A DNA stretch of 64,000 bases from a virus. Every line of letters starts with the position of its first letter. The stretch's first letter is position 1. The notes beneath the pieces are model-generated. The model was not told where the DNA came from. It searched no databases and saw nothing but the letters and a program-made list of their open reading frames with translations. Shown one piece after another: positions 2,565-40,339 of this stretch. The stretch covers positions 1 through 64,000 of IMG/VR virus record IMGVR_UViG_3300022885_000003; one strand, 5' to 3'. A program made the position numbers and the translations under genes.

Positions 2565-3584
2565 TTATCCTTTCATTAATTTATGGACCATCTCCTGGCC
2601 TGTTTTAATTTGTTCTCTTGTTTGTTCTACTTTTGCAATAGCGTTTGATGTCTTGGCTTTATCAAATTTAGAAGCATTCATTGCTTTATTCATTTTGCTA
2701 TCAAAGATTTTTATAAATGCATTGAGTAAATCCTGGGAAGATGAATAATTCTTGAGATTGAATTTGCCATACATATCATTTAATTCAAAGCTTTTAGAAA
2801 GACCCTTAATCATATGAACGAGATCTGCTATTCTTACATCTGTTTTGTTTATACCTGGATATTGTTGTAATTCATTATCAATTTTGGGTTGATTCGTATA
2901 GCCCATTCTTGCATACATCCATAATAGCATATCAATACCAAAATTTTCAATATTTAAACTTATTTGTGCTAATTCATCAAATTTCCTTGTTTTTGCATAA
3001 GAAGCAGGTTCATTACCAACAATCTTCATTTGTGCGCCTGATGTAGAAATGCTTATATCGAGCGAATCACCAAGTGACGAAAACACTGAACCATGTACTA
3101 GCCCTTTAACTCCTTGCTCAGGAGTGTTTCTCCATCTAGCCCAATCAGCTACTTTTTCAGTTGCCCACATAAAATCAACTTGAACAAAAGTATTTTCTAA
3201 AATTTGAAAAATGATATGACCTGATGCTGGCTTGTCAGTTTGAAAAACCGTATTGGGTGATTTCGCAGCAATAAAGTCATCAGCCAATTTATTGTAATGA
3301 GTTGCGATCTGGCTTTCAGTTTTGCCTTCAATAGCTGGCGCAATAATTTGGAGATCGATGTCACCATATTCTTTACCTTCATCATCTACTTGAAAATAAA
3401 CAGTTGATCCAAGTGGTTCACCCATCTTAACTGCATCTTCATCCTGACCAACGAGCCATTTATTGAAATCATCAATAAACATTTTTACAACATTCAATGT
3501 TTCTCGAACGGTATTAGGTGTAATTTTAGTTCCTTGTGTAACTGTATCAGTCCATCCACCTTCAAATAATTCATATGATCTCAT
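2565..3584 (-). CDS. Leader-tagged (MRSYELFE) Pol-beta-superfamily nucleotidyltransferase-like protein
   Basis: LGST...GDIDL...VQVDFM gives GS, DxD and a third Asp. Confidence 0.65.
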   Translation of the reverse strand: MRSYELFEGGWTDTVTQGTKITPNTVRETLNVVKMFIDDFNKWLVGQDEDAVKMGEPLGSTVYFQVDDEGKEYGDIDLQIIAPAIEGKTESQIATHYNKLADDFIAAKSPNTVFQTDKPASGHIIFQILENTFVQVDFMWATEKVADWARWRNTPEQGVKGLVHGSVFSSLGDSLDISISTSGAQMKIVGNEPASYAKTRKFDELAQISLNIENFGIDMLLWMYARMGYTNQPKIDNELQQYPGINKTDVRIADLVHMIKGLSKSFELNDMYGKFNLKNYSSSQDLLNAFIKIFDSKMNKAMNASKFDKAKTSNAIAKVEQTREQIKTGQEMVHKLMKG

Positions 3585-4927
3585 TATGTGCGCTCTCTAT
3601 TAATTTGGACTTCATCGTAATCATCGTCGTATGTATCTGGATCGTGCTTCTTTGATTTTCCTGTTTCGTACACGGAAACATTCTTCAATGGTATTACGCC
3701 TGTATAACCAAATGATAAATTAACCATAGATTTAATTGCATAGAATTTAACATAATTTAACAATTTTTGCTGTTTATCATTGAGTTTGCTTTCGTCTGCA
3801 AAATATGGTTTTAAATCATGAGACATATATCCTTCATGGAAATTAAATTCTTCTTGGATTGCAGCATTGATTTTTTGATTGACTTTTTTATTACTTCTTT
3901 GAATACTACTAACCGCCTTAAATAATGAATCTTCATCAAACGCCAATTTTGTTAAATCATCAATTTTAACTTTTAGAATTACATTAGCTCGCTGTTTTGA
4001 TGCACGAACAGCATATTTTTGTGCAGTTTCTGGCTCCAACGTTAGGTATATTAAGTTCTCACTATGACCTTTAATCTTATCTGAATACTCCTCACCCATG
4101 CCAGGAACCATTCCACCAGATTTTTTAATCTTATTGAAAATGGCATTTGATGTTCCGTGATATGCATAAATTGTGCCTTTACCATTAAGTATTTGTTGAA
4201 TTGTGTTTTTGATATCTTCGTTTTCTTTTTGTTGTCCGATATGATACCCTGGAAGATTTGAAGATACTTGTTTGGCTATTTTAAGAAAATCCATTCGATC
4301 AATTGAGAATTCAACATCAACTAGAATATAAGCTGCATTTCCTGTATAGCCACCCATTCTTGTTTGGTAATCCCGTGTTTTGTTAGCTCGATATATTGAT
4401 TTCTTTATATGGTCAATCACAACATAATGAATCGGACAACTAATAGCCATAGTCAACTCTTTATCAGAGAATATATTATCAATATTATCCATAGTTTTTA
4501 TATTAAAACCATAAACTAAACTAGAAGATAAGCTGCTGGAAAATTGTATAGGATCTTGGTCAGCTAATACATTCATAAAGAATTTTTCCACATCAGGTGA
4601 ATTGAGTTGATGTTTCCCAGGATGAATTGTGCAGTTTCTAATTACTATATCCTTAATTTTATCAGCATGTTCACCAAAAGCTTTAGGAAACGAATTATAA
4701 TCCTCCGTAAAATTAAGTGATTTTAAAATTTCATATAATTGCTTTTTACCATTATCATTAATAAGAAAACCAAAACCATTACCGAAACCTATGTCTTTAA
4801 TAGAGTTTGCATTCATAAGAAGTAGATATTTTTTCTCGTATAGAAAGGCAAATGTCTTATCAAAGTTATCATCACTATTACCTTTGATAATATATTCTTT
4901 CAATATTTGTAATTCGTTAAATCTCAT
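3584..4927 (-). CDS. Leader-tagged (MRFNELQILKE) protein with C-terminal His-type ART/Tpt1-like domain
   Basis: AYHGTS...IYLTLEPETAQKYA...VILKVKI...GVIP. Confidence 0.6.
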   Translation of the reverse strand: MRFNELQILKEYIIKGNSDDNFDKTFAFLYEKKYLLLMNANSIKDIGFGNGFGFLINDNGKKQLYEILKSLNFTEDYNSFPKAFGEHADKIKDIVIRNCTIHPGKHQLNSPDVEKFFMNVLADQDPIQFSSSLSSSLVYGFNIKTMDNIDNIFSDKELTMAISCPIHYVVIDHIKKSIYRANKTRDYQTRMGGYTGNAAYILVDVEFSIDRMDFLKIAKQVSSNLPGYHIGQQKENEDIKNTIQQILNGKGTIYAYHGTSNAIFNKIKKSGGMVPGMGEEYSDKIKGHSENLIYLTLEPETAQKYAVRASKQRANVILKVKIDDLTKLAFDEDSLFKAVSSIQRSNKKVNQKINAAIQEEFNFHEGYMSHDLKPYFADESKLNDKQQKLLNYVKFYAIKSMVNLSFGYTGVIPLKNVSVYETGKSKKHDPDTYDDDYDEVQINRERT

Positions 4928-12420: not shown

Positions 12421-12711
12421 ATGAAAATCACAGTCGACAATTACAAGAATTTTGCAATTAACAAGGATGACAGTAACAATTATTCACACAACTGTACTCT
12501 GCATTTTCCGAACGGCAACATGCTTGGTGGTGTTGATCACTATATGAAGAAAAGCGTTAAGACGCTTATTGACTATTATGTCCGCCGTGCCTACAAAGAA
12601 GGTCTTCGGTGGTTTCCGGCTGGTCAATATACTGTAGAAGTTGAAACCAGTACAAACATTTGTTTTCCTGAGGGATTGAAGACGCACAAATTTACTTTTA
12701 CAATTGACTAA
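12421..12711 (+). CDS. Early hypothetical protein
   Basis: Strong promoter and RBS. Confidence 0.8.
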   Translation: MKITVDNYKNFAINKDDSNNYSHNCTLHFPNGNMLGGVDHYMKKSVKTLIDYYVRRAYKEGLRWFPAGQYTVEVETSTNICFPEGLKTHKFTFTID

Positions 12712-13211
12712 GATAATATCTTAGCTAAGATTCCTTTTTTCTTAATATTCTTTTTAGTACCAGAATTTTTGACTTTCTTGCAAAATGTATCTAAACTCTT
12801 GGCGAGAGTATCAAGACTGTTAAGACTGTTAAGAACAAGCTTTGCTATTTTAATTACCTTTTCATCTTCTTGGTCCAGACGATGGATATTATCCCTTAAC
12901 GTATTGGCTTGGTTCTTGACCTTTTCACTATAGTCTTGTAATGCAACAAATGCTTGCGACGAGGCAGTACCAGTTGATTCACTCAAAAGATGTTTTTCAA
13001 CTTTCTTTAATAGCTGTGCAAGTTCTCTTGCTGTACGAAAGATACTCATTATACCAATTGGTGCCGAACTGGGTTTAACCTCATTGAAGGTACTCATAGC
13101 ACGTAGACCAACAAGAAGTTGTGCTTGGACATTAGAAACAAACTTTGCTAATTGTTTGTTACTCATTGTGCTTTTCATCAATTGGCGTTCATGCAATTCT
13201 AAATATTTCAT
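12708..13211 (-). CDS. Leader-tagged (MKYLELHE) helical protein
   Basis: N-terminal leader; downstream of the late promoter at 13797. Confidence 0.75.
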   Translation of the reverse strand: MKYLELHERQLMKSTMSNKQLAKFVSNVQAQLLVGLRAMSTFNEVKPSSAPIGIMSIFRTARELAQLLKKVEKHLLSESTGTASSQAFVALQDYSEKVKNQANTLRDNIHRLDQEDEKVIKIAKLVLNSLNSLDTLAKSLDTFCKKVKNSGTKKNIKKKGILAKILS

Positions 13212-18866: not shown

Positions 18867-18879
18867 CTAAATATTTATA
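18867..18879. promoter_or_regulatory. Overlapping divergent late promoters
   Basis: CTAAATA (+, towards the array) overlaps TATAAATA (-, towards the cupin operon). Confidence 0.65.
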
Positions 18880-18904: not shown

Positions 18905-20521
18905 ATGAGAGCATATGAATTAATAGAAGGCGTATATGACCCACATATTTTCAAAGCCATTATTATGGCTGGTCCCCCAGGATCAGGTAAATCAACGGTT
19001 GCAAAGAAATTAACCGGTGGTTCCGGTCTTAAAATGGTTGATTCGGATTCCTTCTTAAAACTAGGCGTTAATGATCACACACAACGAGCTAAACTATCTT
19101 CCACGCAATTAGACAACTATATTGAAGGACGTTTAGGCGTCGTTATTGACGGTACTGGTCACAATGTTAATCGGATCCTAGAAACAAAACGTCTATTAGA
19201 CTTTCACGGTTATGATACAATTTTAGTTTTTGTTGATGTTGATCTTGAAAATGCACTATCAAGAAATACAAGAAGATCTAGAACTGAGAACCCACAATAC
19301 GTTTCCAAAATGTGGAATGAAATGGAAGCTAGGAAAGAGCAGCTACGCTCTGTTTTTGGTGGCAACATGGTAGTCGTTGATAATCGTCCAGGTGTTCAAA
19401 ACGATTGGAATCGAGGTTGGAAAGTTATAAAGAAATGGTTAGACCGAGACGTTAATACACCATATGCTCAAGATTGGAAACGAGAGCAACAGCAAAAAAA
19501 GTCGTTAGGCGAAGATTATAAAAGGTTAAAAAGGAAATCTACAGAAAAGTTTAGAGAATTGTATGAATTGTCATTAATGGATGGTAATGATATAGACATA
19601 GATGGTTTTTATAGGGATGCATATCCGTCTATTTTCTTTACTGAAGACTTTGACGATGAATCATTACACGATGCCATAAGCCCATGGATTATTGATGTTG
19701 ATAAACCAACGTTTGTGGTTGATATTTTCTACATGGGAGCATTAAATCGCCTGCAAATCGACATAGATAATTATAAATCTTCACCCTATAATATGCAACC
19801 AACAATCGAGAGCAAAAACATTGCTCATTTACATTTTGATAATGTTAAAGAATTACGATCATTTATAGTGTTAATGAAAACACAATTTGATGGCGATTAT
19901 AATCTAACGATCGACGATAGACGAAACAAATTAAATGAAGATTTGGATTCATCCCTGAACCCAATTGCTATGAATCAAGCAGATGCTGGTAAAGTTGTTG
20001 AGAAAATTAAAAAAGAATGCGGGCAGTATTTAGGAATGATTGATCCCAAAAAACACCACTTGTTTAGAGGGTTAAAATTACGAAATTATTTCGATGCTAT
20101 GGAAATACCTGGAACCAGGGAAAATAGAAAAGCATTAGATACATCAAATGATGTTAATAACGTCGTTATTAAAGCTATCAACGAAAATGGTTTAGTGGCC
20201 AATCGGAATAATAGTTGGTTCAGTACCGGTGATATAGATAGAGCAGATTTTTACGGGACCGTTTATGTTGCATTTCCAACAGATGGTTTCCACTATACTT
20301 GGTCATCGGATATCGACGATTTGTATAGTTTTTCATTGCAGAATGCCGAAGATGGATTACCAATTAATAAAATATACGAACTAGCTAAAAGAAGTTACCA
20401 AGGTGATGATGGTAGTTTATCCAAAGCAATCGAATTTGGTCATGAAATTATGTTTACTTCTCCTAAAGTTATCCTTGTCGACGAAAAATTTCATTACGAT
20501 TATATCAAGGATCAATTATGA
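18905..20521 (+). CDS. Leader-tagged (MRAYELIE) multidomain protein: zeta-toxin-like P-loop kinase, unknown domain, R-S-E-type ART-like domain
   Basis: GPPGSGKS and VVIDGT; C-terminal LFRG...WFSTG...FYGTVYVAFP...EIMF. Confidence 0.8.
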   Translation: MRAYELIEGVYDPHIFKAIIMAGPPGSGKSTVAKKLTGGSGLKMVDSDSFLKLGVNDHTQRAKLSSTQLDNYIEGRLGVVIDGTGHNVNRILETKRLLDFHGYDTILVFVDVDLENALSRNTRRSRTENPQYVSKMWNEMEARKEQLRSVFGGNMVVVDNRPGVQNDWNRGWKVIKKWLDRDVNTPYAQDWKREQQQKKSLGEDYKRLKRKSTEKFRELYELSLMDGNDIDIDGFYRDAYPSIFFTEDFDDESLHDAISPWIIDVDKPTFVVDIFYMGALNRLQIDIDNYKSSPYNMQPTIESKNIAHLHFDNVKELRSFIVLMKTQFDGDYNLTIDDRRNKLNEDLDSSLNPIAMNQADAGKVVEKIKKECGQYLGMIDPKKHHLFRGLKLRNYFDAMEIPGTRENRKALDTSNDVNNVVIKAINENGLVANRNNSWFSTGDIDRADFYGTVYVAFPTDGFHYTWSSDIDDLYSFSLQNAEDGLPINKIYELAKRSYQGDDGSLSKAIEFGHEIMFTSPKVILVDEKFHYDYIKDQL

Positions 20522-21123
20522 GATTTAATGAAATAATTTCAGAAGACAGTTTCGAATCATCGATAATTATTATCGATGATAATAGTAAAGATGTACAGAA
20601 AGTATCTGATTATATTAGACATAAGTGCCAGCAGTATCTATCTATGATTAATCCAAAAACTGATATCTTATATAGAGGTATTGAAAATCGTAGTCATTAC
20701 CATGCTATCGATATTACCGGTGAACGGAAAAATAGAAGTCCAATAGATTCATCTACTGAATTGCATAACAAAATCGATGATATGTTGTATGAACAAGGAT
20801 TCGTAGCTAGAAGAAGCAATAGTTGGTTTGGAACAGGGAATTTTATGACTGCTGGAGTTTATGGAAAAGTGTATGTAGCATTTCCTACTGATGGGTTTCA
20901 TTATACATGGTCTGATACAGTATCCGATCTTTTTACCTATTATCAAGAACATCGAACCAAAGGTATTGATTGGGTTGTTAATAGCATTAAAGACTCTTAT
21001 GAAAGCGACAATAATTCAATAAAAAATGCAATTCAATCGAAAAACGAAATTATGTTTACTTCACCAAGAGTAATACTGGTCGAGGACACTTTTTATCAAG
21101 ACGAGGTTAAATCTAGGTTATGA
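20518..21123 (+). CDS. Leader-tagged (MRFNEIISE) R-type ART-like protein
   Basis: LYRG...WFGTG...YGKVYVAFP...EIMF. Confidence 0.7.
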   Translation: MRFNEIISEDSFESSIIIIDDNSKDVQKVSDYIRHKCQQYLSMINPKTDILYRGIENRSHYHAIDITGERKNRSPIDSSTELHNKIDDMLYEQGFVARRSNSWFGTGNFMTAGVYGKVYVAFPTDGFHYTWSDTVSDLFTYYQEHRTKGIDWVVNSIKDSYESDNNSIKNAIQSKNEIMFTSPRVILVEDTFYQDEVKSRL

Positions 21124-21758
21124 AAGCAATTGAATTATACGAACATACGCCTTCAGTCTCTTCATTGATTATGCCGATTGTTCATTCGAATATCGATGAA
21201 TCTAGTATTTCTAAAGTTGTAGACGCTATTAATGAAAAATGTAGTCAATTTTTAGGAATGGTAGATCCAGTTAATGATGTTTTGTATAGAGGGTTTGATC
21301 GAAAGTCGACGCATTCTTCGCCGTTGGCATTTTATTTTGATGGTAAGCGAGAGAATAGAAAACCACTCAGCACACCTAATGCGTTCCATCAGAAAGTAAT
21401 TAAAATGATTAATTCCGCTGGCTTGGTTGCAAATCGTGATAACGGATGGTTTGCAACCGGAGATAGGAATGAGGCATATGGATATGGTGAAGTTTATGTA
21501 GTGTTCCCGAAAAATGGGTTCCATTATACATGGTCACGGTATATTGGCGATTTATATGCAGATTATGATGAAGCATCCATGACAGATGAAAGGATGGATG
21601 CATTTATGGAAAAAATAAAAGCTTCCTATGAGGGAGATAACGGGACATTGAAAGAAGCAATTCATTCAGGTAATGAAATTATGTTTACATCAGATACAGT
21701 TATAATGGTTAATCCCGATTTTTACCATAAATATATTGCTGCGAATCTAAATAAATAG
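21120..21758 (+). CDS. Leader-tagged (MKAIELYE) R-type ART-like protein
   Basis: LYRG...WFATG...YGEVYVVFP...EIMF. Confidence 0.7.
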   Translation: MKAIELYEHTPSVSSLIMPIVHSNIDESSISKVVDAINEKCSQFLGMVDPVNDVLYRGFDRKSTHSSPLAFYFDGKRENRKPLSTPNAFHQKVIKMINSAGLVANRDNGWFATGDRNEAYGYGEVYVVFPKNGFHYTWSRYIGDLYADYDEASMTDERMDAFMEKIKASYEGDNGTLKEAIHSGNEIMFTSDTVIMVNPDFYHKYIAANLNK

Positions 21759-21782
21759 TAAAATACAGTTTAGGGGATTATT

Positions 21783-22352
21783 ATGTTTTTGGTAGAGTTA
21801 TTTGAAGATCAACAGAAAAGCGCAGTCTTTTCATTCGGTCGCATGAATCCCCCTACTGTGGGTCACCAAAAACTTATGCAGAGAGTTATGGACCTTGCAT
21901 CTGAAAAAAATGCTGATGTATTTATTGTCCCATCTAAGACGCAAGATAAAAAGAAAAATCCCTTATCATTTGAACAAAAGAAATATTTTATTGAAAAGAT
22001 CTATGGGTTTCCGGTTTACGACAACCCAACTATGAAATCCCCATTTCAAATGGCTGGTTGGCTCGGAGAGCAAGGTTATAAGGACGTAACCTTTGTTGTT
22101 GGTTCTGATCGAGTAGAGGCTTTCAAAGGGATCGAAGAGCATTATGCAAAAGACTTTGGTGGAATATTCAAAGTAGTTTCTGCTGGAGAGCGTGATCCCG
22201 ATGCCGATGGAGTAGAAGGTATGAGTGCTTCGGTAATGCGTGAGTTCGCCAAAGAAGGCAATATGGCAAGCTTTATGAAGGGCCTTCCACCCGAAACTAA
22301 AATTGGTATTGCTAAAGAATTGATGATAGCAGTAAGGGATGGTTTGAAATGA
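21783..22352 (+). CDS. Leader-tagged (MFLVELFE) HxGH nucleotidylyltransferase (cytidyltransferase/NadD-like)
   Basis: FGRMNPPTVGH, NPL, VVGSDR, MSASVMR. Confidence 0.85.
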   Translation: MFLVELFEDQQKSAVFSFGRMNPPTVGHQKLMQRVMDLASEKNADVFIVPSKTQDKKKNPLSFEQKKYFIEKIYGFPVYDNPTMKSPFQMAGWLGEQGYKDVTFVVGSDRVEAFKGIEEHYAKDFGGIFKVVSAGERDPDADGVEGMSASVMREFAKEGNMASFMKGLPPETKIGIAKELMIAVRDGLK

Positions 22353-23212
22353 GATATATAGAATTATCTGAATCAATAACAGCATATCATGGTTCAAGCA
22401 ATGAACACCAAGGATTTGATACAAAGCATACAGGTGATAATAGTCATACATTTGGTAGTTACAATACTGATCGACATGGCATATTCTTTAGTTTAAATCC
22501 GAAATTTGCTGCCATGTATGGAGACGTTATTCAATATGAACTGAATATTAATAACACTACCAATCTTGATAAGAGTCTTGATATAGTTGCTGCCTTTGCA
22601 GATCAAACAACTGACCGAGGAATAAGGATGGATGCTCAAAATGTTTTATATAAACATTGGAGCGTTTGGCAATTATTCGAAGATGATCTGGGTAAAGAAT
22701 TTGTAACATTTTTAAAAGATCAAGGGTACGATTCAGCCACATTTACCGAATATAACGAAAATGATGATGGGAAGGAAATTGACGGAAAGACAATTGTTGT
22801 TTTCAATCCAAGCAAAGTTATAAAGCATGGACAGCTTGAATTGGATTTATATGAGAACACTGATGAATTTAGTTCGTTAACCATTGAAGAGTTTATGTTG
22901 TATATTGAAAATAAATATGATGTAAAACAGTTCTTTGTTTCTAATTATAAAACAAACATTATCAAACTTGATAATATTATTGTTGGTGATAAGAAGCGGG
23001 GCACTGGTACAGAAATTATGAATGATCTTATTACTTATGCCGATGATAATCATAAAATGATTATATTAACCCCAGCAGTAGCAGATGATCGACATGGTAC
23101 AACTTCTAGATCTAGGCTTGTAAAATTTTACAAGAGATTTGGATTTTATGAGAATAAGGGTCGGAAGAAAGATTTTAGTCTTCCTTCCGGAATGATAAGG
23201 GATCCACAATGA
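22349..23212 (+). CDS. Leader-tagged (MRYIELSE) His-type ART domain plus GNAT acetyltransferase
   Basis: AYHGS...GIFFS...AAMYG...GYDS...IVVF; then KKRGTGT.IM...LVKFYKRFGF. Confidence 0.8.
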   Translation: MRYIELSESITAYHGSSNEHQGFDTKHTGDNSHTFGSYNTDRHGIFFSLNPKFAAMYGDVIQYELNINNTTNLDKSLDIVAAFADQTTDRGIRMDAQNVLYKHWSVWQLFEDDLGKEFVTFLKDQGYDSATFTEYNENDDGKEIDGKTIVVFNPSKVIKHGQLELDLYENTDEFSSLTIEEFMLYIENKYDVKQFFVSNYKTNIIKLDNIIVGDKKRGTGTEIMNDLITYADDNHKMIILTPAVADDRHGTTSRSRLVKFYKRFGFYENKGRKKDFSLPSGMIRDPQ

Positions 23213-23883
23213 GATATCAAGAATTATATGATTGGGAACAGTTATCGGCGTCTAATTTCGTTATGCCAAAAATGTCTGGATCTTATATCGACAAAGCATC
23301 ATGTGGGAGGGGGACATACCATATATATGTGGATATTAATATACCCCAAAAATATTATTGGGCTATAGATCCCAATACCAATATACCTATATGCTTTATT
23401 GGTTTATTACAATTTGGTAAATATTATATGATAAAGAATGCATTTTCTAGTATTCAAGGAAAAGGTCTAGCTACATCTTTGATTGACTATGTTATTGATG
23501 CAGAAAACACAATGTTTTTCTCTGATACACAAATGAGTTTAGCTGGAGAAGCGTTAACACGAAAGTTGGAACAGCGTTCATTAACTAGAATAGTAAACCT
23601 GAATACTCTGGAAATATTTGATAAAACTGATGTTAATCAAAAACAATCTAACGATGGTGAAATGGTTACGCATCCAAAAAACGATACGCGCACGACACCG
23701 CAAGACTTTGGTAATATTCAACATAATGAACAACGTTGGGTATTTGTATTTGAAAATATAATAACAGAAACTAAAAAATATTCAAGCAACCAACCCAAAT
23801 TATTAAAATTTGACGTTCCTGAAAAAGGATATTCTAAAGATAGTTTATTGATACCACTTGTTAGATATACAGAGGGCCCATAA
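23209..23883 (+). CDS. Leader-tagged (MRYQELYD) GNAT-like protein
   Basis: IQGKGLATSL acetyl-CoA loop; FSDTQMS.AG. Confidence 0.6.
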   Translation: MRYQELYDWEQLSASNFVMPKMSGSYIDKASCGRGTYHIYVDINIPQKYYWAIDPNTNIPICFIGLLQFGKYYMIKNAFSSIQGKGLATSLIDYVIDAENTMFFSDTQMSLAGEALTRKLEQRSLTRIVNLNTLEIFDKTDVNQKQSNDGEMVTHPKNDTRTTPQDFGNIQHNEQRWVFVFENIITETKKYSSNQPKLLKFDVPEKGYSKDSLLIPLVRYTEGP

Positions 23884-24500
23884 TGAGATACGAAGAATTA
23901 ACTGAAGGTAAAAATACTCCTTGCATTGTTGTTGATGTGCAACCAGAGTATACTGGATTAAATGACGGTAACGAACTTCCGTGGATCGACGAGATGATGG
24001 CGTTTCTTAATAAACAAACAGGCCCCATATTAATGTTTGTTAATGCTGAAGACCAAATGATGTCAGGTGATACTATTGACGATGTTAACGTATACTGGGA
24101 AGATTCCGGATTTGATCCTAGCAATTGGGATAGAGTCCAAGTTGTCGATAAGGGATATGGTTATTTTAGAGCATGGATGGATTCAGGTGTTCCTGAATCG
24201 GGTATCATTAAAACAATACGAGCAATGTATCAACAGAAAATTACAGACTCTAGAGAATTATTTAATGGGGAAGATGACGAAAACTATATTGAAAACATGA
24301 ACCAATTATTAGGGAATGATGATTGGGTTTCATTATATGATGATGGATTAAGTGTTGAATGGACATCAGTTGGACAATTAAAACGATTCTCTGGTGCTTA
24401 TATTATGGGTGGTGGTAGAGATGAATGCCTTCGAGAAGTTGAGTTATTGATGAATGCATTTAACATTAAATACAAACGTATAGAGGACTTTGTTTACTAA
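23883..24500 (+). CDS. Leader-tagged (MRYEELTE) isochorismatase/nicotinamidase-like cysteine hydrolase
   Basis: IVVDVQ (Asp), VDKG (Lys), GGGRDECL (Cys) triad pattern. Confidence 0.65.
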   Translation: MRYEELTEGKNTPCIVVDVQPEYTGLNDGNELPWIDEMMAFLNKQTGPILMFVNAEDQMMSGDTIDDVNVYWEDSGFDPSNWDRVQVVDKGYGYFRAWMDSGVPESGIIKTIRAMYQQKITDSRELFNGEDDENYIENMNQLLGNDDWVSLYDDGLSVEWTSVGQLKRFSGAYIMGGGRDECLREVELLMNAFNIKYKRIEDFVY

Positions 24501-24868
24501 TGAGAGCAATAGAGTTATATGAAAATAATATAGATATCGATTATTATATGGAGGAAGGATGTGGTATCTGGGCGGTAGCTCATGCTTTAAAAAACAATGG
24601 AAAGGTTTTAACTCTATACAACCCCGAAGGAGAAGCCTGGGATAATCAAACACATGAAATTACGCATGTGGTATCAATTGTTGATGGTAAAGCACATGAT
24701 GTCCTGGGAAGTTATAATCATATATCGGAAATTGATAAAAGATTCGGTAACTTGCAAATGGGAGATTCTTATAAACCCAAAGAATTTTTAAAGAAATTTA
24801 TGGGCGATAGTGATGACAAACCATTATATGGTGATATGAATGATGTTAAAGAAGTAATAGGTGTATAA
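24500..24868 (+). CDS. Leader-tagged (MRAIELYE) Cys-His-Asp (papain/transglutaminase-like) protein
   Basis: GCGIWAVA...THVV...HDVLG. Confidence 0.55.
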   Translation: MRAIELYENNIDIDYYMEEGCGIWAVAHALKNNGKVLTLYNPEGEAWDNQTHEITHVVSIVDGKAHDVLGSYNHISEIDKRFGNLQMGDSYKPKEFLKKFMGDSDDKPLYGDMNDVKEVIGV

Positions 24869-24871
24869 AAA

Positions 24872-25423
24872 ATGAGATACGAAGAATTAACTGAAAGCCG
24901 ATAGAAAACAGTTTACCACGGTGATAATTTTGGTACTACTTCATTGGAGCCTTCGTTAATGAATAACGGAAATAACCAAGAAGGTATAGGAATTTATTTT
25001 ACTGACAAATTAGAAACAACAGATACTTATGGTTTAAATGTAATTTCAGCTATAATAAATCAAGATAGATTTCTTAATAGCCGAGATACAGTAGATATAA
25101 TTGGAGTTCAACAAATAACCAAATTATTAAAAGCATTATGGCCATCTGATGAAGAAGCAATGTTTTATTGGATATCTGATTATATACCGTTGTCTGTACC
25201 AGAAGAAGTTGAAGAACATCATTTAGAAGAATTCGCTGGAAAGGTAGGATCTAGCGAAATTAGAAATTTTCAAATCGAATTAGCAAGTAATTTTGGTGTA
25301 GAAAATATGGTTAAAGCATGGAATGATATCTTAAATATTGATGGTACTTATTATCCATACATAGAAGGTGAAATATGGTACGCAATTATAAACCCCGAAA
25401 TTCAAGTAACGGTGATAAAATGA
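24872..25423 (+). pseudogene. Leader-tagged (MRYEELTE) His-type ART-like gene interrupted by in-frame TAG at 24902-24904
   Basis: MRYEELTESR*KTVYHGDNF continues in frame into ORF 24944 (EGIGIYFT...TYG). Confidence 0.8.
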
Positions 25424-25815
25424 GAGCAATAGAATTAACAGAAAATAAATTTTATCATGGAACATCGTCTTGTCTCTTAGAAACTATTAAAGAGGATGGG
25501 TTTTCTTCTCCATCATATTTTGTTAAGGATTTTGATGTAGCGTCTGAGTATGCAGCAATGGGTGGAGAATGGGATTTGCAGGATCGAGAAGAAAAATATG
25601 AAGAAAAATATGGCACCCCACCTAGAGAAATATTTGATGTTTGGGAAATGTATGAGAAATTGTATCCCGTTGGATGCTATCCCATCGTAATTGAAGTTCT
25701 AATACCAAATAATGTAATGCAATTTGCTGATGCTGGTGGCCATGGTTCAGAAGCAATATCATTAAATAATTGCAGTGGTGTTAAAATAAATTCAATACAT
25801 AAGGTTAAATGGTGA
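25420..25815 (+). CDS. Leader-tagged (MRAIELTE) His-type ART-like protein
   Basis: FYHGTS...I..DG...YF.....ASEYA...IVIEV. Confidence 0.7.
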   Translation: MRAIELTENKFYHGTSSCLLETIKEDGFSSPSYFVKDFDVASEYAAMGGEWDLQDREEKYEEKYGTPPREIFDVWEMYEKLYPVGCYPIVIEVLIPNNVMQFADAGGHGSEAISLNNCSGVKINSIHKVKW

Positions 25816-25821
25816 TTCAAA

Positions 25822-26478
25822 ATGAGAGCAATAGATTTATATGAAAACAATCACAAGGAAGAAATAGTCAGGGCATGGAGTCTCATACAACGAGACTGTC
25901 AACCTTTCCTTCTGGAATCTAATAATAAACCATTATATCGTGGCATAAATGATCTAAATACGGTTGAGTCTAGAGTTTCTTTTACCAAACTAACTGTTCA
26001 TCAAGAACGTATACCACGAGACACTAATCCATTTGAACATGAATATGTTATTAAAGCTATGAAAGATGCTGGGTTTAATGCACATCGCGGCAATTCAATA
26101 TTTTGTCAAGCTAGTACAGTTGGACTATATGACTATGGTGAAGTTTATGTCATATTTCCAATTGGTGATTTTAATGTTACATGGTCTAATGTGATAGTAG
26201 ACTGGACCGAAGATGGAAATATATACTAATTTGTTACGAATCACAAAGAGCATCCTGGATTTGTGTCAAAAGAATCCATCGTTGATATGCCAGGATTTAC
26301 AAGATGGATCGATGCAAATTACATTGATGGTCATTTGGCGGAAGCAATAGAAGCCAAACATTACGAGATAATGATCAATTGTAAGGAATATTATGCAGTT
26401 CTATATAAATCTCATAATAGCCAACAAATGTGGGATTATCAAGATATGAAGGAGGTGGTCAATCATGAGAGCAATTGA
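25822..26478 (+). pseudogene. Leader-tagged (MRAIDLYE) R-type ART-like gene interrupted by in-frame TAA at 26227-26229
   Basis: ORFs 25822 and 26263 are in the same frame and together align with paralog 29763 (EIMINCKEYYAVL...HESN). Confidence 0.8.
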
Positions 26479-27241
26479 ACTATACGAATACCATGAAACT
26501 TCACCTGTAATTATTTCGCCCGATATAATTAAGAAAATCAAATCCGAGTGTTCAATTGCTTTATCCAAGGATCCAATATATCGAGGGTTAAATCAGTCAA
26601 ACGATATATTATATGGAAATCCAATAAAACCGAGATCGTCTGCAAACACATATAACTATTACACAACGATATTAGATGAGTTACCATCGTGGCAAAAATT
26701 CCCAAAGAGATCATTGTCATGGATTTGCTCTACTTCAGAAAATACAGCATCGGGATATGGGACCGTCTATCGTGTTTTACCGGTCAATAACCCTTTGATA
26801 TCTATTGCATCAAGTGATGATTTATGGTTTTCTTTCTCTGAGGGATTACATCGAACCCTGTCTGATATTCATGTGTATGACCTATTCGATTTTAGTAGAT
26901 TATTACATGATATATTCGCAATTGGTAGACGTAACGGTGTTTCAGTTAATGTTAAATCTTTAGGTGATATGAATAATACCATTGAACTGATTATCAAGCA
27001 GAATGAAATCGAATCAATTACCCGTTATGAGAGATATCAAGAGTTTTTCACTTATGTACAAAAAGCCGGTAGCTTCATAAACTTAGTAAGCACACTTTTC
27101 GACCCAAAAATTAACCATATAGAGTTGGTCGACTTGAATAAATTTATCGCTGCACCATCTCGAGAGGTATGGTTTACTGGTCCAGCATATTTCATTCAAA
27201 ATACCCATTGGGGGAAGATGTTTAAGAATAAATATCAGTAA
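26465..27241 (+). CDS. Leader-tagged (MRAIELYE) R-STS-E ART-like protein
   Basis: IYRG...WICSTS...YG.VYRVLP...REVWF. Confidence 0.75.
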   Translation: MRAIELYEYHETSPVIISPDIIKKIKSECSIALSKDPIYRGLNQSNDILYGNPIKPRSSANTYNYYTTILDELPSWQKFPKRSLSWICSTSENTASGYGTVYRVLPVNNPLISIASSDDLWFSFSEGLHRTLSDIHVYDLFDFSRLLHDIFAIGRRNGVSVNVKSLGDMNNTIELIIKQNEIESITRYERYQEFFTYVQKAGSFINLVSTLFDPKINHIELVDLNKFIAAPSREVWFTGPAYFIQNTHWGKMFKNKYQ

Positions 27242-27255
27242 TATTGGAGTTTAAA

Positions 27256-28023
27256 ATGCGCGCCATCGAATTATATGAATATCATGAAACAAAAGAAGTT
27301 ACGCCTTCTCCTGAAATTATTCAGAAAATTAAGAAAGATTGCGCATTTGCATTGAAAGGCAGTAGACCAATATATCGTGGTATGGAAACACACTTAGATT
27401 TTATGTATAGTAATACACCAGAAATTCCCAGAGAGTCTGCTAATACACATAACTATTATACTATACTTATGGATGAATTACCAAGCTGGTCATCATTTCC
27501 AAAACGTTCTCTATCATGGATTTGCTCAACTAGTCGATTTACGGCTTCTGATTATGGTAATCTTTTCCGAGTATTACCTGTCGGAAATCCTGATATTGTT
27601 ATTGCAGATAAAGAAGATTTATGGTTTAGTTTTATTAAAGGGTTATCGTTAATAAGCGTAGAACTCGAAGATATGGACGAGTTCAATCAAACTATTTCGA
27701 TAATTATCAATAAAACCGATAATCAACCCCCAAAGACATTAAAGTCTCTTGCTTCGATAATTGATCAAGCTGCTCATAATCAACAAAATGGTTCAAAAAT
27801 CGTCGATGAATGGAGTAGCGCGGAAGTAGCCGCGCACGAATTACTCAATGAAGTTAATCAAAAGGGTGGGTTTGTTTCACTTATGAACAATGTATTAGAT
27901 CCAGAACTAAATGATTTCTATATTACCAAATTAAATAATCTTTATGATAAAACTAGTGAAGTATGGTTCAGTGGTCCGGCTTATTTCTTATCACTTGATA
28001 TTTGGAATAATTATTTTGAATAA
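27256..28023 (+). CDS. Leader-tagged (MRAIELYE) R-STS-E ART-like protein, paralog of 26465
   Basis: IYRG...WICSTS...YG.LFRVLP...SEVWF; has its own TAAATA and GGAG. Confidence 0.75.
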   Translation: MRAIELYEYHETKEVTPSPEIIQKIKKDCAFALKGSRPIYRGMETHLDFMYSNTPEIPRESANTHNYYTILMDELPSWSSFPKRSLSWICSTSRFTASDYGNLFRVLPVGNPDIVIADKEDLWFSFIKGLSLISVELEDMDEFNQTISIIINKTDNQPPKTLKSLASIIDQAAHNQQNGSKIVDEWSSAEVAAHELLNEVNQKGGFVSLMNNVLDPELNDFYITKLNNLYDKTSEVWFSGPAYFLSLDIWNNYFE

Positions 28024-28057
28024 CTTCATTAATTATAATGTAATAAATAGTATTACT

Positions 28058-28471
28058 ATGAAACTAGATGATATTGATAAAGATAAAATTATAAAATTTC
28101 CTGGGAGAACATCCAGGGACGTAAAGGAAGAACGCGCAAAATTTAATTTAATCATTAAGGAATTGGTCACATTACAACTTGAAAAGGAAAAGCAACCTGA
28201 ACGTTCACAAGCGATAATACGTGGACTCAAGACGGAATACTCAGGATTAATGGCTCGGTTTGTTTCACAAATGTTATATCTCTTGGAAATAAAAGGTGAT
28301 GAAGAACAGTTCCTAGATATGGTTATGAGTGCTAAATGGGACGATATACGTAAAGAGTTTTTAGAACATAAAATTGATATATTTAAGAAGATATATGGAA
28401 TTCTTCGTAACCATACAACTGCAAGAGCAGCGGAATTAGGGATAAGGATTGTAAGAAATGAGAGCATATGA
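28058..28471 (+). CDS. Helical hypothetical protein with weak or no leader (MKLDDID)
   Basis: Start placed just after TAAATA at 28044-28049. Confidence 0.6.
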   Translation: MKLDDIDKDKIIKFPGRTSRDVKEERAKFNLIIKELVTLQLEKEKQPERSQAIIRGLKTEYSGLMARFVSQMLYLLEIKGDEEQFLDMVMSAKWDDIRKEFLEHKIDIFKKIYGILRNHTTARAAELGIRIVRNESI

Positions 28472-29168
28472 ATTATTTGAAAAGGTTGTACAAACAGATC
28501 GATATAATTATCGTGGTTATAAAATTGTTTTCCAATTGGAGCCTGATTCCCAAGGAAAATATATTGGTCAGATTTTCGGAGACAATGCCCCAAAAGAGCA
28601 ATTTGAAAATACAGACTTAGAAGATCTTAAACGGGATATGGAAAATACTGTTAATCAATTAGAAGTTGATGCCAAAAGAAACATGTTAGTTCGTCGAGAT
28701 GTAGTAGATTCAAATGCCATACGACGGGTTGCATTAAATTATAATACACAATTTACAAGACAAATACTCGATAATGAAATACCAACAGCAACTAGATTAA
28801 TGTTTGTAAATGGTCAAGCATACTTAGATGTGATGACAAGAGAAGCGTTTGAAGTGTTTGGTGAAGAACTCAAATCAGTTGGATTTACTAAAATTTCCGA
28901 TCGGCAATGGTCAAAGAGTGAAGGTGCCACAAAAATATTCGGGGTTTCTAATGTTAATCCAAAGTTAATAGATCAAATGAATTTAGAATTCCACGGCGTT
29001 TATGAATTAAAAGTAGGACAATCACCTGATCCCGAAATGTTTACACGTTATGAATTGGATCAATTGGGTTACAGTGATAAGGATATGTCATATCCGGTTC
29101 CTGCCGTAACAATTGCATTCTGGTACAAAGACGGAAAGTATTCAGAGGAATCAAATGCGAGCAATTGA
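28458..29168 (+). CDS. Leader-tagged (MRAYELFE) protein of unknown function
   Basis: Leader present; 236 aa. Confidence 0.75.
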   Translation: MRAYELFEKVVQTDRYNYRGYKIVFQLEPDSQGKYIGQIFGDNAPKEQFENTDLEDLKRDMENTVNQLEVDAKRNMLVRRDVVDSNAIRRVALNYNTQFTRQILDNEIPTATRLMFVNGQAYLDVMTREAFEVFGEELKSVGFTKISDRQWSKSEGATKIFGVSNVNPKLIDQMNLEFHGVYELKVGQSPDPEMFTRYELDQLGYSDKDMSYPVPAVTIAFWYKDGKYSEESNASN

Positions 29169-29766
29169 ATTATATGAAACTCGACTCGAAATAGGATTTG
29201 AGCTACTACAGAAATTCAAAAGCATGGATGAGATTGGTGAGTTCGCTGGAAAAATTCAAGAAGATTGTTCCGATTTTCTATCCATACGAGGAACCGGCTG
29301 GCTTTATCGAGCAACCGACGATATCGGTAATCAAATTGGAATTGCATCACCTACTCCGGATCGCCCACCTCTTCATACTCCAAGAGAGGAGCATAATAAT
29401 GCGGTTCATTGGATGAAAAAGAATGGGGCTATTGCAAGGCGAGATAATTCTTTTTTCTGCTATAATAATCCATATGACACTGAAAATTTCGACCATGTAT
29501 ATGGCAATCGAATCTATTCAGTTGTGCCTATAAATGGATTTCATTATACTTGGTTTGATGGGGTTAATGATTTTACAATGCAGGGTCCCAAGGCAGGAAG
29601 ATACGATACTATGGATGAATTCGCAAAAGATCACCCAATACATGTCGATGAGGGATTGTCTCATGCGTTGAGTAATCCTGATAATTCTCCCGAAATTTTA
29701 ATACAAGGTCGTTGTTATTTTATACAAGAAAGCATTTTTGAAGATATGTTTAAGGATAAATTATGA
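29155..29766 (+). CDS. Leader-tagged (MRAIELYE) divergent R-type ART-like protein
   Basis: LYRA...ARRDNSFFC...YG..IY.VVP..FHYTW...EILI. Confidence 0.65.
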   Translation: MRAIELYETRLEIGFELLQKFKSMDEIGEFAGKIQEDCSDFLSIRGTGWLYRATDDIGNQIGIASPTPDRPPLHTPREEHNNAVHWMKKNGAIARRDNSFFCYNNPYDTENFDHVYGNRIYSVVPINGFHYTWFDGVNDFTMQGPKAGRYDTMDEFAKDHPIHVDEGLSHALSNPDNSPEILIQGRCYFIQESIFEDMFKDKL

Positions 29767-30446
29767 GAGCAATTGAATTATTTGAATCAGACGATATATC
29801 AATGAAAGAAGCTTGGAAGTTAATTCAACGCGATTGCCAACCATATCTCAGTCTTAAAGCCGATGATTTATATTTGTATCGAGGTATCGCGGAAATACAA
29901 TTTAATCCAAGAACATCTTTTCGTAAACTTCCAGTTAGACAAGATCGCCGACCCCTTGATTCAAACATAGATGACCATAATATTACTAATGCGGCAATGC
30001 AGGCGGCTGGATTTAAAGCATATAGAGGAAATTCGATTTTTTGCAGAACAACCCATGAAGGACTTGGTAACTATGGTTTACTTCATATGATTTTCCCAAT
30101 CGGAAACTTTAATATATCTTGGTCCCCTTCAGTTGGTGATTGGAACAACAATGGGCCAAATATTATCAATGATAATATTGAAGTCGATGAAGATACAACC
30201 ACAAACAAAAAAAACTCAATAACATTAAGTGATGGTGAAAAGGTAGTTTATGACAATTTAGTTGATTGGTTCGAAGATCATTATAAGGATAATGATTTAC
30301 AATACGCAATGGAAGACAGCCCCAATTCAGAAATCATGATTAATTGTAAAGAATACTATGCGGTTTTATTTGATAGTAGTAAATTGAAAAATAATATATG
30401 GGACTCATTTGAGTTAACGGAGATAATAGAACATGAAAGCAATTGA
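29763..30446 (+). CDS. Leader-tagged (MRAIELFE) R-type ART-like protein
   Basis: LYRG...RGNSIFC...YG....IFP...EIMI. Confidence 0.7.
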   Translation: MRAIELFESDDISMKEAWKLIQRDCQPYLSLKADDLYLYRGIAEIQFNPRTSFRKLPVRQDRRPLDSNIDDHNITNAAMQAAGFKAYRGNSIFCRTTHEGLGNYGLLHMIFPIGNFNISWSPSVGDWNNNGPNIINDNIEVDEDTTTNKKNSITLSDGEKVVYDNLVDWFEDHYKDNDLQYAMEDSPNSEIMINCKEYYAVLFDSSKLKNNIWDSFELTEIIEHESN

Positions 30447-30963
30447 ATTATTTGAAAATACCGAACTACAATGGAATAAGAATCCCCAGATTGGATGGTG
30501 GCTTGATAATGATCCGGTAACTTTTTATCACGGAACTCATATGCGCAATATTGAAGGTATTCTAAAGCATGGTATTTTTGCTCCTTCTGAAGGACCGACT
30601 GCTGGAAAGGTGAGCCTTGCCTTAGATCCCTATACCGCCTTTGGATACGCTGCAATGGGCGGAGATGGCGGCGAATCAAGTTTTCGTGGTGCAGGTCAGA
30701 AAGCTAAAACTACACCACCGAGTGATCGGGTTGTTTTTGTATTAGAAATCCCACAAAATTATTTCCTTCCGAGAATGGTTGATGCTCGAAGTTCTATGAC
30801 GGATCAAGCTGGAAAATTAGATGATCGAAGGGAATATGAAAATTTCAAACGGACAGCAATTGCACCAAATAATACAGATCATCTTTATTACGCATTAACC
30901 GAAATACGTTTACCAGAACATGTTCCTGCAGAGTTTATTAAAGGATATATGTTCAAGAAATAA
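30433..30963 (+). CDS. Leader-tagged (MKAIELFE) His-type ART/Tpt1-like protein
   Basis: FYHGT..NI.GIL..GI...SLA.D...A.GYA...TEIR....VP. Confidence 0.7.
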   Translation: MKAIELFENTELQWNKNPQIGWWLDNDPVTFYHGTHMRNIEGILKHGIFAPSEGPTAGKVSLALDPYTAFGYAAMGGDGGESSFRGAGQKAKTTPPSDRVVFVLEIPQNYFLPRMVDARSSMTDQAGKLDDRREYENFKRTAIAPNNTDHLYYALTEIRLPEHVPAEFIKGYMFKK

Positions 30964-33285: not shown

Positions 33286-33358
33286 GCCGCTATAGCTCAG
33301 TTGGTAGAGCGGGTGATTTGTAATCACCAGGCCCGTGGTTCGAATCCTCGTGGCGGCA
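33286..33358 (+). tRNA. tRNA-Thr(UGU), CCA not encoded
   Basis: Acceptor GCCGCTA/TGGCGGC, D arm GCTCAGTTGGTAGAGC, anticodon arm GGTGA-TTTGTAA-TCACC, T loop TTCGAAT. Confidence 0.95.
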
Positions 33359-33441
33359 CTCATTTCGCTGGCGGCGTTTCTCCTTGACATGTTATAATAT
33401 CTTTTATACTATATACCGGAACAGATATAGAAAGATTCAAA

Positions 33442-35396: not shown

Positions 35397-35776
35397 TAGC
35401 AGGATTTACAGGAACACAAAGCACAATGTCAACGGATCAATTTGATCGATTAGTTAAATTATGCAAAGATTATAAAATAACCGAATTGCATCACGGTGAC
35501 TGTGTTGGAGCCGATGCAGTTGCACACGATATTGCGGAATCACTTAACATTCGAACCGTAATTCACCCACCAATTAAACCATTCAAACGGGCGTTTAAGA
35601 AGGGTGATATGATATTGCCGATGAAAGATTATTTGGTCAGAAACCGAGACATTGTTAATGCCTCGGAAATTCTGTTTGCTTGCCCCAAAGGACCAGAAGA
35701 ATTACGTTCAGGAACTTGGTCAACGGTTAGATATGCTCGGCGAGTTAAGAAACCAATTGAAATTGTTATGCCTTAA
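35393..35776 (+). CDS. SLOG/DprA-like Rossmann-fold protein
   Basis: GFTG, HHGDCVGAD, RNRDIV, SGTWSTVRYA. Confidence 0.8.
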   Translation: MIAGFTGTQSTMSTDQFDRLVKLCKDYKITELHHGDCVGADAVAHDIAESLNIRTVIHPPIKPFKRAFKKGDMILPMKDYLVRNRDIVNASEILFACPKGPEELRSGTWSTVRYARRVKKPIEIVMP

Positions 35777-38700: not shown

Positions 38701-38844
38701 CATTTCAGCTGAGCCGATAATTTCGTACTGATTAGGATAACAGTCCATGCCATATGTTCCTATAGCGATATCGGCAATCGCTTTGTCAACTTCAGCAATC
38801 TTTTCAAATGTCCAATCATTGTTTGTATATAATAACTTACTCAT
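35773..38844 (-). CDS. ycgB: SpoVR/YcgB family protein containing an intein
   Basis: GMP.MY.HWS.GK, GLAYEIVINS.P, HAGYGHN.FFKNN, YFYPQ.Q|TKVMNEGWASFWH; exteins total 506 aa. Confidence 0.93.
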   Translation of the reverse strand: MSKLLYTNNDWTFEKIAEVDKAIADIAIGTYGMDCYPNQYEIIGSAEMLDAYTSVGMPNMYHHWSYGKRFLHDEQNYKRGAMGLAYEIVINSNPTINYLMEENSMTMQTLVIAHAGYGHNNFFKNNFLFKEWTDADAIIDYVVFARRYIKQCEERYGQEKVEETLDSCHALMNHGVDRYKKPRKLSKSKELLRQQDRETYRQSQVDDLWKTLPPTKKEDQDARKKKFLSEPQENLLYFIEKNSPVLEQWQREIVRIVRKMAQYFYPQMQCLTGNHFVSNENGLIRLQDLIVTEGIAEHPGFNLLTEGNKTTAISHTYKKQADTFKITTKSGRTFTATPEHPLQVLSNNGLVCMTRLEDMSPGEYLVYKLDYDIFGHKEVEIKYPKYNLDVIECKICGLQSSSIASHIVQRHSIDIDFYKKEYGSCISDEYKLTMSKNKITKMPTHFNNDSARLFGYLSGATITDYRRTASLFKFVTDTKEIADDVVHLLNKVFGIVVKSKEYYSSYKVEFASMMLKDIWFKNISITRRHELPKFVLSLKKEYMKEYLSGFFDTRISKKSYERGNIAIAGYSDDYDDLQTLSVILTGFGIIPKVNIKERESFESIAFALNIPDCEDIKAVDYSLKIYSDFTNKFYDEIGTKRSKIKLLKGNRVIPNGKEVLIEAKAAIKKLQIAHTATDNYQKSNYAYKVKNNLLLKDTGLDCLDAFPNLSLNNVAIEQISYCLIKRLEKIKDCHPKIKEALELISNASNNYYDEIVSIEKGNIEWVYDVTVPENHLFWTDGLISHNTKVMNEGWASFWHHHLMYDLWEQDRISDGNMLEFLKSHSGVVFQPDFDSPYYQGGFNPYYLGFNIFHDIKRMCEKPTKEDEEWFPSIVGQPWLPTLNYAMENFKDESFILQYLSPHLIRKMHLFSLHDNNKRPVYDVSNIHDDYGFKRVRSILSKQYQLNRILPDIQITDFDILGDRTLYLTHYMRNEIPLNNNTDEMLKHVHTLWGFDVILESKNANTGETVETYGCLKSEQKDNS
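36487..38037 (-). mobile_element. Intein (517 aa) with degenerate LAGLIDADG-type endonuclease and C2H2 finger
   Basis: Starts CLTGN; block B TATPEHP; ends VYDVTVPENHLFWTDGLISHN with +1 Thr; internal LFGYLSG and YLSGFFD; CKIC...H....H. Confidence 0.92.
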
Positions 38845-40120: not shown

Positions 40121-40284
40121 TGGAAGCCTCCTTACCATTGGGGGAATAGTTATTACAATACTATTTATTATTTTGGAAAATAGTTCATTCGATTTCATGC
40201 AATTTTATTTTAATAACGCTATGTTTTTTAATAATAAATAAAAGATAACATTAAAATTATGTTATATAATACCCATTAACTCCA

Positions 40285-40316
40285 CCCCGGGCTTACTTTT
40301 GCCCGGGGTCTTTTTT
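40285..40316 (+). terminator. Intrinsic terminator on the + strand with no obvious upstream gene
   Basis: CCCCGGGC-TTACTTTT-GCCCGGGG-TCTTTTTT. Confidence 0.7.
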
Positions 40317-40339
40317 GACTTAAATTCTAATCAAATTAC

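Follow-up and report, generated by a model that had tools for sequence, protein, structure and literature searches.

We analysed a 64,000-nucleotide stretch of viral DNA (the window), the first 64 kb of the 114,738-base IMG/VR record IMGVR_UViG_3300022885_000003, in which a run of adjacent genes shares a single eight-residue N-terminal leader. The CheckV completeness of the record is 31%, which implies that it derives from a jumbo phage with a genome of several hundred kb. We consider it likely that this leader is a capsid-targeting propeptide of the T4 style, and that the system it belongs to has been expanded approximately tenfold. The leader heads proteins of different folds, ends in the cleavage motif of the T4 prohead protease gp21, and predicts virion membership in the cultured Agrobacterium jumbo phage Atu_ph07.

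A single leader opens an array of consecutive genes

A six-frame motif scan, read together with the open reading frame (ORF) list and the start-codon contexts, finds M-[RKF]-x-x-[ED]-[LI]-x-[ED] at the start of 17 of 18 consecutive plus-strand genes between 18905 and 30963. A preliminary description of this DNA had reported the same, and its counts and coordinates hold. About 11 further tagged genes are found elsewhere on the 114.7-kb contig, bringing its total to about 28, and six of them lie past the window, all on the minus strand (86933, 87691, 88815, 90121, 92790 and 95033). Four outside genes listed in the preliminary description (starts at 3584, 4927, 13211 and 13791, all on the minus strand) do exist, those at 4927 and 13791 being looser variants. 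The strict motif is expected to match about 0.05 times among 166 gene starts, and a relaxed motif begins 23 of the 166 called genes where 0.67 are expected.

Across 24 tagged contig genes, M1, L6 and E/D8 are each present in 24/24, E5 in 22/24 and R/K2 in 21/24. Positions 9-12 are unconstrained in these genes and conservation ends at residue 8, which bears out the earlier claim that similarity stops right after the Glu. What comes after the leader differs in fold: a kinase, a nucleotidyltransferase, an ART-PolyVal domain and ADP-ribosyltransferase (ART)-like families are all preceded by it. In an AlphaFold model of the 21120 protein, computed from a 90-sequence alignment, residues 1-7 are the sole stretch with a predicted local distance difference test score (pLDDT) below 50 (mean pLDDT 90.4), which places the tag outside the folded domain. 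The idea that the tag is a piece of the ART-like domain was rejected, because the tag precedes unrelated folds as well and the model shows it disordered. The genes at 26465 and 27256 encode identical first 12 residues with several silent codon differences, and conservation does not extend to upstream DNA.

The leader predicts virion membership in Atu_ph07

Atu_ph07 (490 kb), placed by Iyer et al. in T4-derived jumbo-phage group 2.2 (PMC7824862), is the sole cultured phage with homologues of the array proteins. Its tandem array gp53-gp63 has the start M-[RK]-W-x-[QED]-L-x-E in 11 of 11 proteins, save that gp63 has L at position 3. These proteins share with the window the two main cargo families (A and B, described below), the kinase module and the small module of the 22349 protein, in a shuffled domain order. 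The leaders of Atu_ph07 keep M1, the basic residue, L6 and E8 and differ from those of the window at residues 3 and 5; L or I occupies position 6 in 19/19 and E position 8 in 19/19. This phage also carries a Peptidase S77 protease, which is the T4 gp21 match in Table S3 of Attai et al. 2018.

We called strict-tag ORFs across the Atu_ph07 genome and compared them with the virion table that Attai et al. 2018 obtained by electrospray ionization tandem mass spectrometry (PMC6102473), matching ORFs to table rows on genome order and on predicted mass (within 0.01 kDa), with two locus tags confirmed from the annotation. Nineteen of the 20 strict-tag ORFs appear in the virion table, against a background of 140/714 (Fisher p ~2e-13). 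They are gp43, gp53-63, gp381, gp408, gp482, gp487, gp548, gp561 and gp672, and the mass spectrometry coverage of gp53-63 (12–47%) extends over a range that spans the values for the portal and capsid proteins. A second virion proteome on which to repeat the comparison was sought, but for RsoM2USA and XacN1 the published data are limited to a few excised bands, not enough for such a test.

The preliminary description had proposed a common head-loading tag. A portable tag that ends in (L/I)-x-E, sits on different folds and predicted virion membership 19 times out of 20 in Atu_ph07 sustains part of that proposal; packaging in the window's own phage is a step that we infer, as are head location, cleavage, late timing, injection and the enzymatic activities.

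Multi-domain tagged proteins have leader-like joints

The gel data in the same table bear on internal cutting. We calibrated gel slices by the median mass of their proteins, and the table gives for each protein the slice of peak abundance; a loss of about 1 kDa, the size of the leader, is below gel resolution. The 41.4-kDa gp63 peaks in the ~29-kDa slice, and a cut at its interdomain I-T-E site predicts 28 kDa. For gp483 (33.7 kDa), which peaks at ~15 kDa, two repeated joints, L-x-E then L-F-D-T, predict halves of 16.3 and 16.9 kDa, and gp53 (87 kDa) peaks at ~22 kDa where joints of the same kind predict pieces of 14–26 kDa. The joints in the latter two proteins are as follows.

gp53, NC_042013.1 39484-41820: repeated N-L-[TN]-E then L-F-D-T at module boundaries
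gp483, NC_042013.1 350504-351388: repeated N-L-[TN]-E then L-F-D-T at module boundaries

The gel positions of gp63, gp483 and gp53 thus fit cutting at L-x-E joints. Comparable relics are present in the window. In the 18905 protein, leader-like L-x-E sequences follow residues 221 and 345 and mark precisely the two boundaries between its three modules, and the 22349 protein has a leader-like L-Y-E after residue 169, at the joint of its two modules. Long metagenomic relatives have hydrophobic-x-E-S joints, and one of them, P0002, with 2645 amino acids (aa) and five copies of family A, would be an extreme polyprotein form of the array. Judged from their sequences, the jointed multi-domain proteins fit polyproteins that are cut by a head protease.

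Tagged arrays recur in uncultured relatives

The start M-[RK]-x-x-[EDQ]-hydrophobic is found in 107 of 145 non-self top family representatives from metagenomes; of 939 internal Met residues, 7 begin such a sequence. More arrays are found in IMG/VR loci, one of which (L003) has 13 consecutive genes with leader-like starts. In IMG/VR record G004, a large gene occupying the portal position is followed in turn by an S77 protease, by a gp23-type capsid gene and, directly after it, by tagged family genes.

Closer matches to the window itself were few. A word-index protein search found one array protein also on record in a 407,795-base contig and otherwise only the self-match, megablast of the array region against phage records gave zero matches, and a 40-mer taken from the window had zero exact matches when viral and metagenome contigs were scanned.

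Genes of the array and other tagged genes of the window

The array and the tagged genes outside it are listed below by coordinates in the window.

18905..20521, plus strand: tagged gene 1; 538 aa in three modules; AAA_33/zeta-toxin-like P-loop kinase, followed by a middle module and, at the C-terminus, a family-A ART-like domain
20518..21123, plus strand: tagged gene 2; family-A ART-like; the leader has an extra residue before the final Glu; ATGA overlap with gene 1
21120..21758, plus strand: tagged gene 3; family-A ART-like; structure modelled
21783..22352, plus strand: tagged gene 4; cytidylyltransferase-like nucleotidyltransferase; CTAAATA 36 nt upstream
22349..23212, plus strand: tagged gene 5; ART-PolyVal and a C-terminal module homologous to the N-terminus of Atu_ph07 gp63
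23209..23883, plus strand: tagged gene 6; 224 aa; no Pfam or PHROGs family
23883..24500, plus strand: tagged gene 7; 205 aa; virus-only clusters; weak isochorismatase/cysteine-hydrolase lead
24500..24868, plus strand: tagged gene 8; 122 aa; no Pfam or PHROGs family
24872..25423, plus strand: tagged gene 9; TAG at codon 11; the frame runs on into a Y-H-G type domain
25420..25815, plus strand: tagged gene 10; 131 aa; Y-H-G-T directly after the leader, His-type ART-like, without Pfam confirmation
25822..26478, plus strand: tagged gene 11; family-A ART-like, split by TAA at 26227-26229; each half matches the 29763 protein
26465..27241, plus strand: tagged gene 12; family B; homologous to Atu_ph07 gp55, gp56, gp58 and gp59; phrog_12810 at 5e-41
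27256..28023, plus strand: tagged gene 13; family B
28058..28471, plus strand: the exception in the array; leader incomplete, without the final Glu
28458..29168, plus strand: tagged gene 14; 236 aa; no Pfam or PHROGs family
29155..29766, plus strand: tagged gene 15; family-A ART-like
29763..30446, plus strand: tagged gene 16; family-A ART-like
30433..30963, plus strand: tagged gene 17; 176 aa; Y-H-G-T motif; sub-threshold PARP-like Pfam match (E 0.0016)
2565..3584, minus strand: outside tagged gene; 339 aa; no Pfam or PHROGs family
3584..4927, minus strand: outside gene with looser leader; 447 aa; TATAAATA 40 nt upstream
12708..13211, minus strand: outside tagged gene; 167 aa
13216..13791, minus strand: outside gene with looser leader; extra residue before the Glu

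The array genes form a compact operon in which start/stop overlaps of 1, 4 and 14 nt occur, and in the 4- and 14-nt overlaps the leader's own bases provide the stop of the preceding gene. A TAAATA-type site lies just upstream of two genes of the array, 18905 and 21783, and the earlier statement that all tagged genes are downstream of TAAATA late promoters was therefore too broad. The site before the first gene is

CTAAATA, 18867..18873, plus strand: 38 nt upstream of the first array gene; putative late promoter

The bare 6-mer is not enriched (145 observed against ~220 expected, both strands) and is uninformative in this AT-rich genome. All five large tail-fibre-like genes, and several of the tagged operon heads, have the longer nATAAATA at a distance of 28–53 nt upstream. 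Overall it precedes 20 of 67 operon heads, other genes included; as sequence, this placement is compatible with T4-type late promoters.

Two array genes, otherwise intact, contain in-frame stops: TAG at 24902-24904 (codon 11, just past the leader) and TAA at 26227-26229. Recent nonsense mutation or variation within the population is the probable source of both, in a gene family with fast turnover. Stop-codon recoding was set aside, as the two stops differ (TAG and TAA) and the one tRNA of the window is a tRNA-Thr.

The main cargo is probably an ART-fold superfamily

We compared the array proteins by BLASTP with the first 10 residues removed. Six array genes share one domain, which we call family A: the C-terminus of 18905, and 20518, 21120, 25822, 29155 and 29763. 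The genes at 26465 and 27256 form family B, a sister of family A. Searches with these families gave zero Pfam matches and PHROGs families of unknown function only, a profile search of Protein Data Bank (PDB) sequences gave zero matches, and neither of the two models computed gave a Foldseek match to the PDB at E <= 0.001. Structural comparison with VIA-align, using the model from the deep alignment, gave BC2332 as the best match of family A (Z 6.3, root-mean-square deviation 3.4 Å, 129 residues aligned). It is followed by about 20 ART-fold chains at Z 2.3–4.3, among them Arr, cholix toxin, diphtheria toxin, exotoxin A, DarT, PARPs and ParT. Among 90 homologues, R80, R106 and E186 never vary and R57 and N108 hardly do; the layout of these residues resembles R-S-E. 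The model and residue pattern point to, short of proof, a divergent domain of the ART superfamily.

A profile of the six window paralogues matched 6405 representative proteins at E <= 1e-3 and 4901 at <= 1e-10 among 1.84 billion searched. The main cargo of the leader is probably a very large and unnamed superfamily of ART fold. The phrase '17 unrelated genes' of the preliminary description is overstated: nine of the array genes, more than half of the 17, fall in this one probably ART-fold superfamily, and a His-type ART-like motif is present in others.

Describing the array products as enzymes was likewise too strong, a Pfam-level assignment being available for four only. The N-terminus of the 18905 protein matches AAA_33 (7e-12) and Zeta_toxin (3e-7), and the 21783 protein matches CTP_transf_like at 5e-5 (23.9 bits against a cut-off of 21). 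Residues 11-156 of the 22349 protein match ART-PolyVal (PF18760) with 33.3 bits, above the Pfam gathering threshold of 31.2, and its C-terminal module is 53% identical to residues 38-104 of gp63 by BLASTP. Pfam and PHROGs gave zero assignment for 23209, 23883, 24500, 25420, 28458 and 2565-3584; the cysteine-hydrolase match of the 23883 protein (score 0.86, TM 0.46) is a lead only.

Weighing the capsid address against other explanations

Several observations count against a capsid address or narrow its support. The Atu_ph07 virions were purified with polyethylene glycol only, and the virion table includes a few evidently non-structural proteins at low coverage; it lists terminase, ribonucleotide reductase and a RecA-like protein, so that some rows are contaminants. 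The mass spectrometry contains no N-terminal peptides, and removal of the leader is thus not visible there; nor can it separate the head from a tail or 'hair' location. L-x-E sites do not account for where gp482 runs on the gel. A search for a gp21-like prohead protease, which the preliminary description had suggested, succeeded in Atu_ph07 and in two of five relative records examined, and found neither an S77 protease nor a gp23 capsid gene on the 114.7-kb, 31%-complete contig, so that for this fragment the link to the protease runs via relatives only. In the other three relative records, incomplete at 33%, 60% and 74% by CheckV, neither protease nor capsid gene was found, a gap that their incompleteness renders uninformative. 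The ART fold assignment of the main cargo depends on low Z-scores. Finally, the codons of the leader are far more uniform than those of the genome (AGA 15/18 against 27%, TTA 20/24 against 33%, GCA 11/12 against 38%), and some constraint at the DNA or RNA level acts on the leader too.

This last observation raises the possibility that what the genes share is chiefly a feature of the nucleic acid, the peptide having no sorting role: either a cassette for translational coupling or initiation or a recombination linker for cassette swapping. Besides codon uniformity, this would account for most array genes overlapping the prior stop by 1, 4 or 14 nt by means of leader bases. The uniformity arises in part, however, because ATGA overlaps need an A after ATG, and the tag is also present on the operon heads 18905, 21783 and 4927, which have no overlap. 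M, a basic residue, L6 and E8 persist in Atu_ph07, where residues 3 and 5 have changed, identical leaders differ silently, and 19 correct virion predictions in 20 are unexpected from a purely nucleic-acid element. Both peptide-level and DNA-level traces are present in the leader, and we judge a nucleic-acid feature on its own to be very unlikely.

The leader could instead be an assembly tag, cleaved or not, for a part of the virion other than the head interior, such as hair-like fibres, whiskers or the tail; virion mass spectrometry cannot localise proteins. Atu_ph07 bears unusual hair-like appendages (PMC7824862), and the array is on the same contig as several tail-fibre-like genes. We nevertheless find such a tag improbable, in that the leader ends in a prohead-protease motif, the tagged genes of G004 come straight after protease and capsid genes, the cargo appears enzymatic rather than fibrous, and the precedent in T4 is that of internal head proteins. 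That the leader is instead a recognition peptide for some other partner, be it a modifying enzyme, a chaperone or a degradation system, has a very slim chance in our estimation: no candidate enzyme is consistently beside the tagged genes in the window, Atu_ph07 or the IMG/VR loci, and virion enrichment together with the L-x-E ending favours a head protease.

Under the capsid-targeting reading, the tagged proteins would be made alongside the structural proteins and brought by the leader into the assembling prohead core, where a prohead protease of gp21 type (Peptidase S77) would cut after the Glu of L-x-E. The mature proteins would remain in the head with the DNA and would probably be delivered to the next host cell. 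The multi-module 18905 and 22349 proteins would be fusions in which leader-like L-x-E joints have been retained, and cutting probably releases their modules from one another. The cargo so delivered would comprise mainly the probable ART-like superfamily, together with a P-loop kinase, a nucleotidyltransferase and an ART-PolyVal domain.

Other features of the contig

The window also holds large tail-fibre-like genes and a PrkA/YeaG-YeaH-SpoVR-like operon, of a kind also present in jumbo and mega-phages. The three large proteins encoded by this operon (35773-42335, minus strand) have 644, 453 and 1023 aa. The first is a PrkA/YeaG-like serine kinase, 68% identical to a protein that a phage record annotates as YeaG, and the second has a SpoVR-like ('sporulation protein') match in PHROGs; homologues are found in the Ralstonia jumbo phage RsoM2USA and in uncultured phages of ~640 kb. 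At 48938-52272 (minus strand), two neighbouring tail-fibre-like genes of 270 and 806 aa have near-identical N-termini and the same upstream nATAAATA, and in sequence they look like alternative receptor-binding proteins with a shared anchor. The only tRNA in the window is a tRNA-Thr with anticodon TGT (33286-33359, plus strand). Past the window, contig positions 98.2–100.0 kb contain a run of minus-strand genes for proteins of ~100 aa each, most of which begin M-D-C or M-N-C with a second Cys a few residues on; they are a separate expanded family.

Discussion

The principle of tag-directed head loading is already known from T4. T4 internal proteins (IPs) have a tag of about 10 residues with one cut beside it and remain in the head afterwards, and the tag carries foreign proteins into the head (PMC8442874). 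The IPs of T-even phages were already known as diverse, defence-countering proteins in which only this capsid-targeting sequence (CTS) is conserved (PMC3012670), and the novelty claimed in the preliminary description was in this respect overstated. The leader described here resembles the T4 CTS in being a short N-terminal tag (8 residues, against ~10 in T4) that starts with M and a basic residue, ends hydrophobic-x-Glu within the gp21 cleavage motif (L/I)-x-E, and is common to otherwise dissimilar proteins; a T4-type S77 protease, moreover, occurs in relatives with the tag. It differs in its sequence and in scale: T4 has three IPs and a few others, whereas a third of a genome already holds ~28 tagged genes here. 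The cargo here is mostly 120–540 aa, enzyme-like and multi-module, whereas that of T4 consists of small basic proteins, and cleavage and head location are here predicted.

T4 also packages an ADP-ribosyltransferase, Alt, in its head and injects it with the DNA. The parallel is that of an ART-type enzyme in a T4-type phage, represented here by the ART-PolyVal domain and the large ART-like family, all tagged. Sequence similarity to Alt is not detectable, however, and there are many paralogues here against a single Alt; ART activity of the family is a prediction based on weak similarity in fold plus an R / N-S / E pattern.

Nearest to the array is gp53-gp63 of Atu_ph07, annotated as hypothetical and identified as virion proteins by Attai et al. 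2018, with homologous domains, a tandem arrangement and the same leader logic. The two differ in domain order, which is shuffled, and at leader residues 3 and 5 (W and Q in Atu_ph07, A/Y and E here). In the sections and supplementary tables consulted of the Atu_ph07 paper (PMC6102473), and in term searches of its text, neither the shared leader nor the L-x-E joints came up.

Jumbo phages of another group offer a further comparison. The propeptides of phiKZ and SPN3US are long and protein-specific, and their cleavage motif is small residue-x-Glu. In these phages many head-internal proteins are processed after Glu by a prohead protease (gp175 and gp245, respectively) and ejected (PMC5694885, PMC10052503). 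A related protease processing ejected head proteins after Glu would be common to both systems, but phiKZ and SPN3US are not known to have a single short common tag, and they belong to a separate jumbo-phage group.

ARTs have been described as often packaged in heads by Iyer, Burroughs, Anantharaman and Aravind 2022, who inferred this from MuF or portal fusions or from gene neighbourhood (PMC9503650). The notion behind those polyvalent and MuF-fused effectors, that myovirus heads commonly carry ARTs and other NAD/ADP-ribose enzymes and deliver them at infection, is shared by the reading proposed for the array, and ART-PolyVal occurs here too; the address here would instead be a detachable 8-aa tag on separate genes. 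Term searches found no mention of the leader in the text of that paper or of the jumbo-phage survey PMC7824862. The apparent novelty lies in the scale and lineage of the system, in the sequence of the tag, in a cargo dominated by ART-like proteins, in fusions with protease joints and in the connection with an existing virion proteome.

We see roughly even prospects for a broader generalization, in which a detachable eight-residue tag ending in L-x-E is a general head-loading label for the Atu_ph07 group of T4-derived jumbo phages and for many of its uncultured relatives, the whole packaged and probably injected effector set can be read from sequence alone, ART-like proteins in thousands of sequence clusters are the main cargo, and new cargo is gained by fusing and splitting at joints that the protease can cut. 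With Atu_ph07 in culture, the idea is directly testable. The tag could also be used to load foreign proteins into the heads of jumbo phages, as the T4 CTS does.

Should the tag prove to be a capsid address, one could list the proteins packaged by uncultured giant phages from their sequence alone. The tagged proteins would then be the first to act in a newly infected cell, and prime candidates for host takeover or counter-defence. The leader also gives context to a very large family without assigned function, comprising 6405 representative clusters and probably of ART fold. The arrays suggest how such an arsenal may evolve: commonly tagged cassettes would fuse and split at protease sites and turn over fast, as reflected in the fresh stops carried by 2 of the 17 copies.

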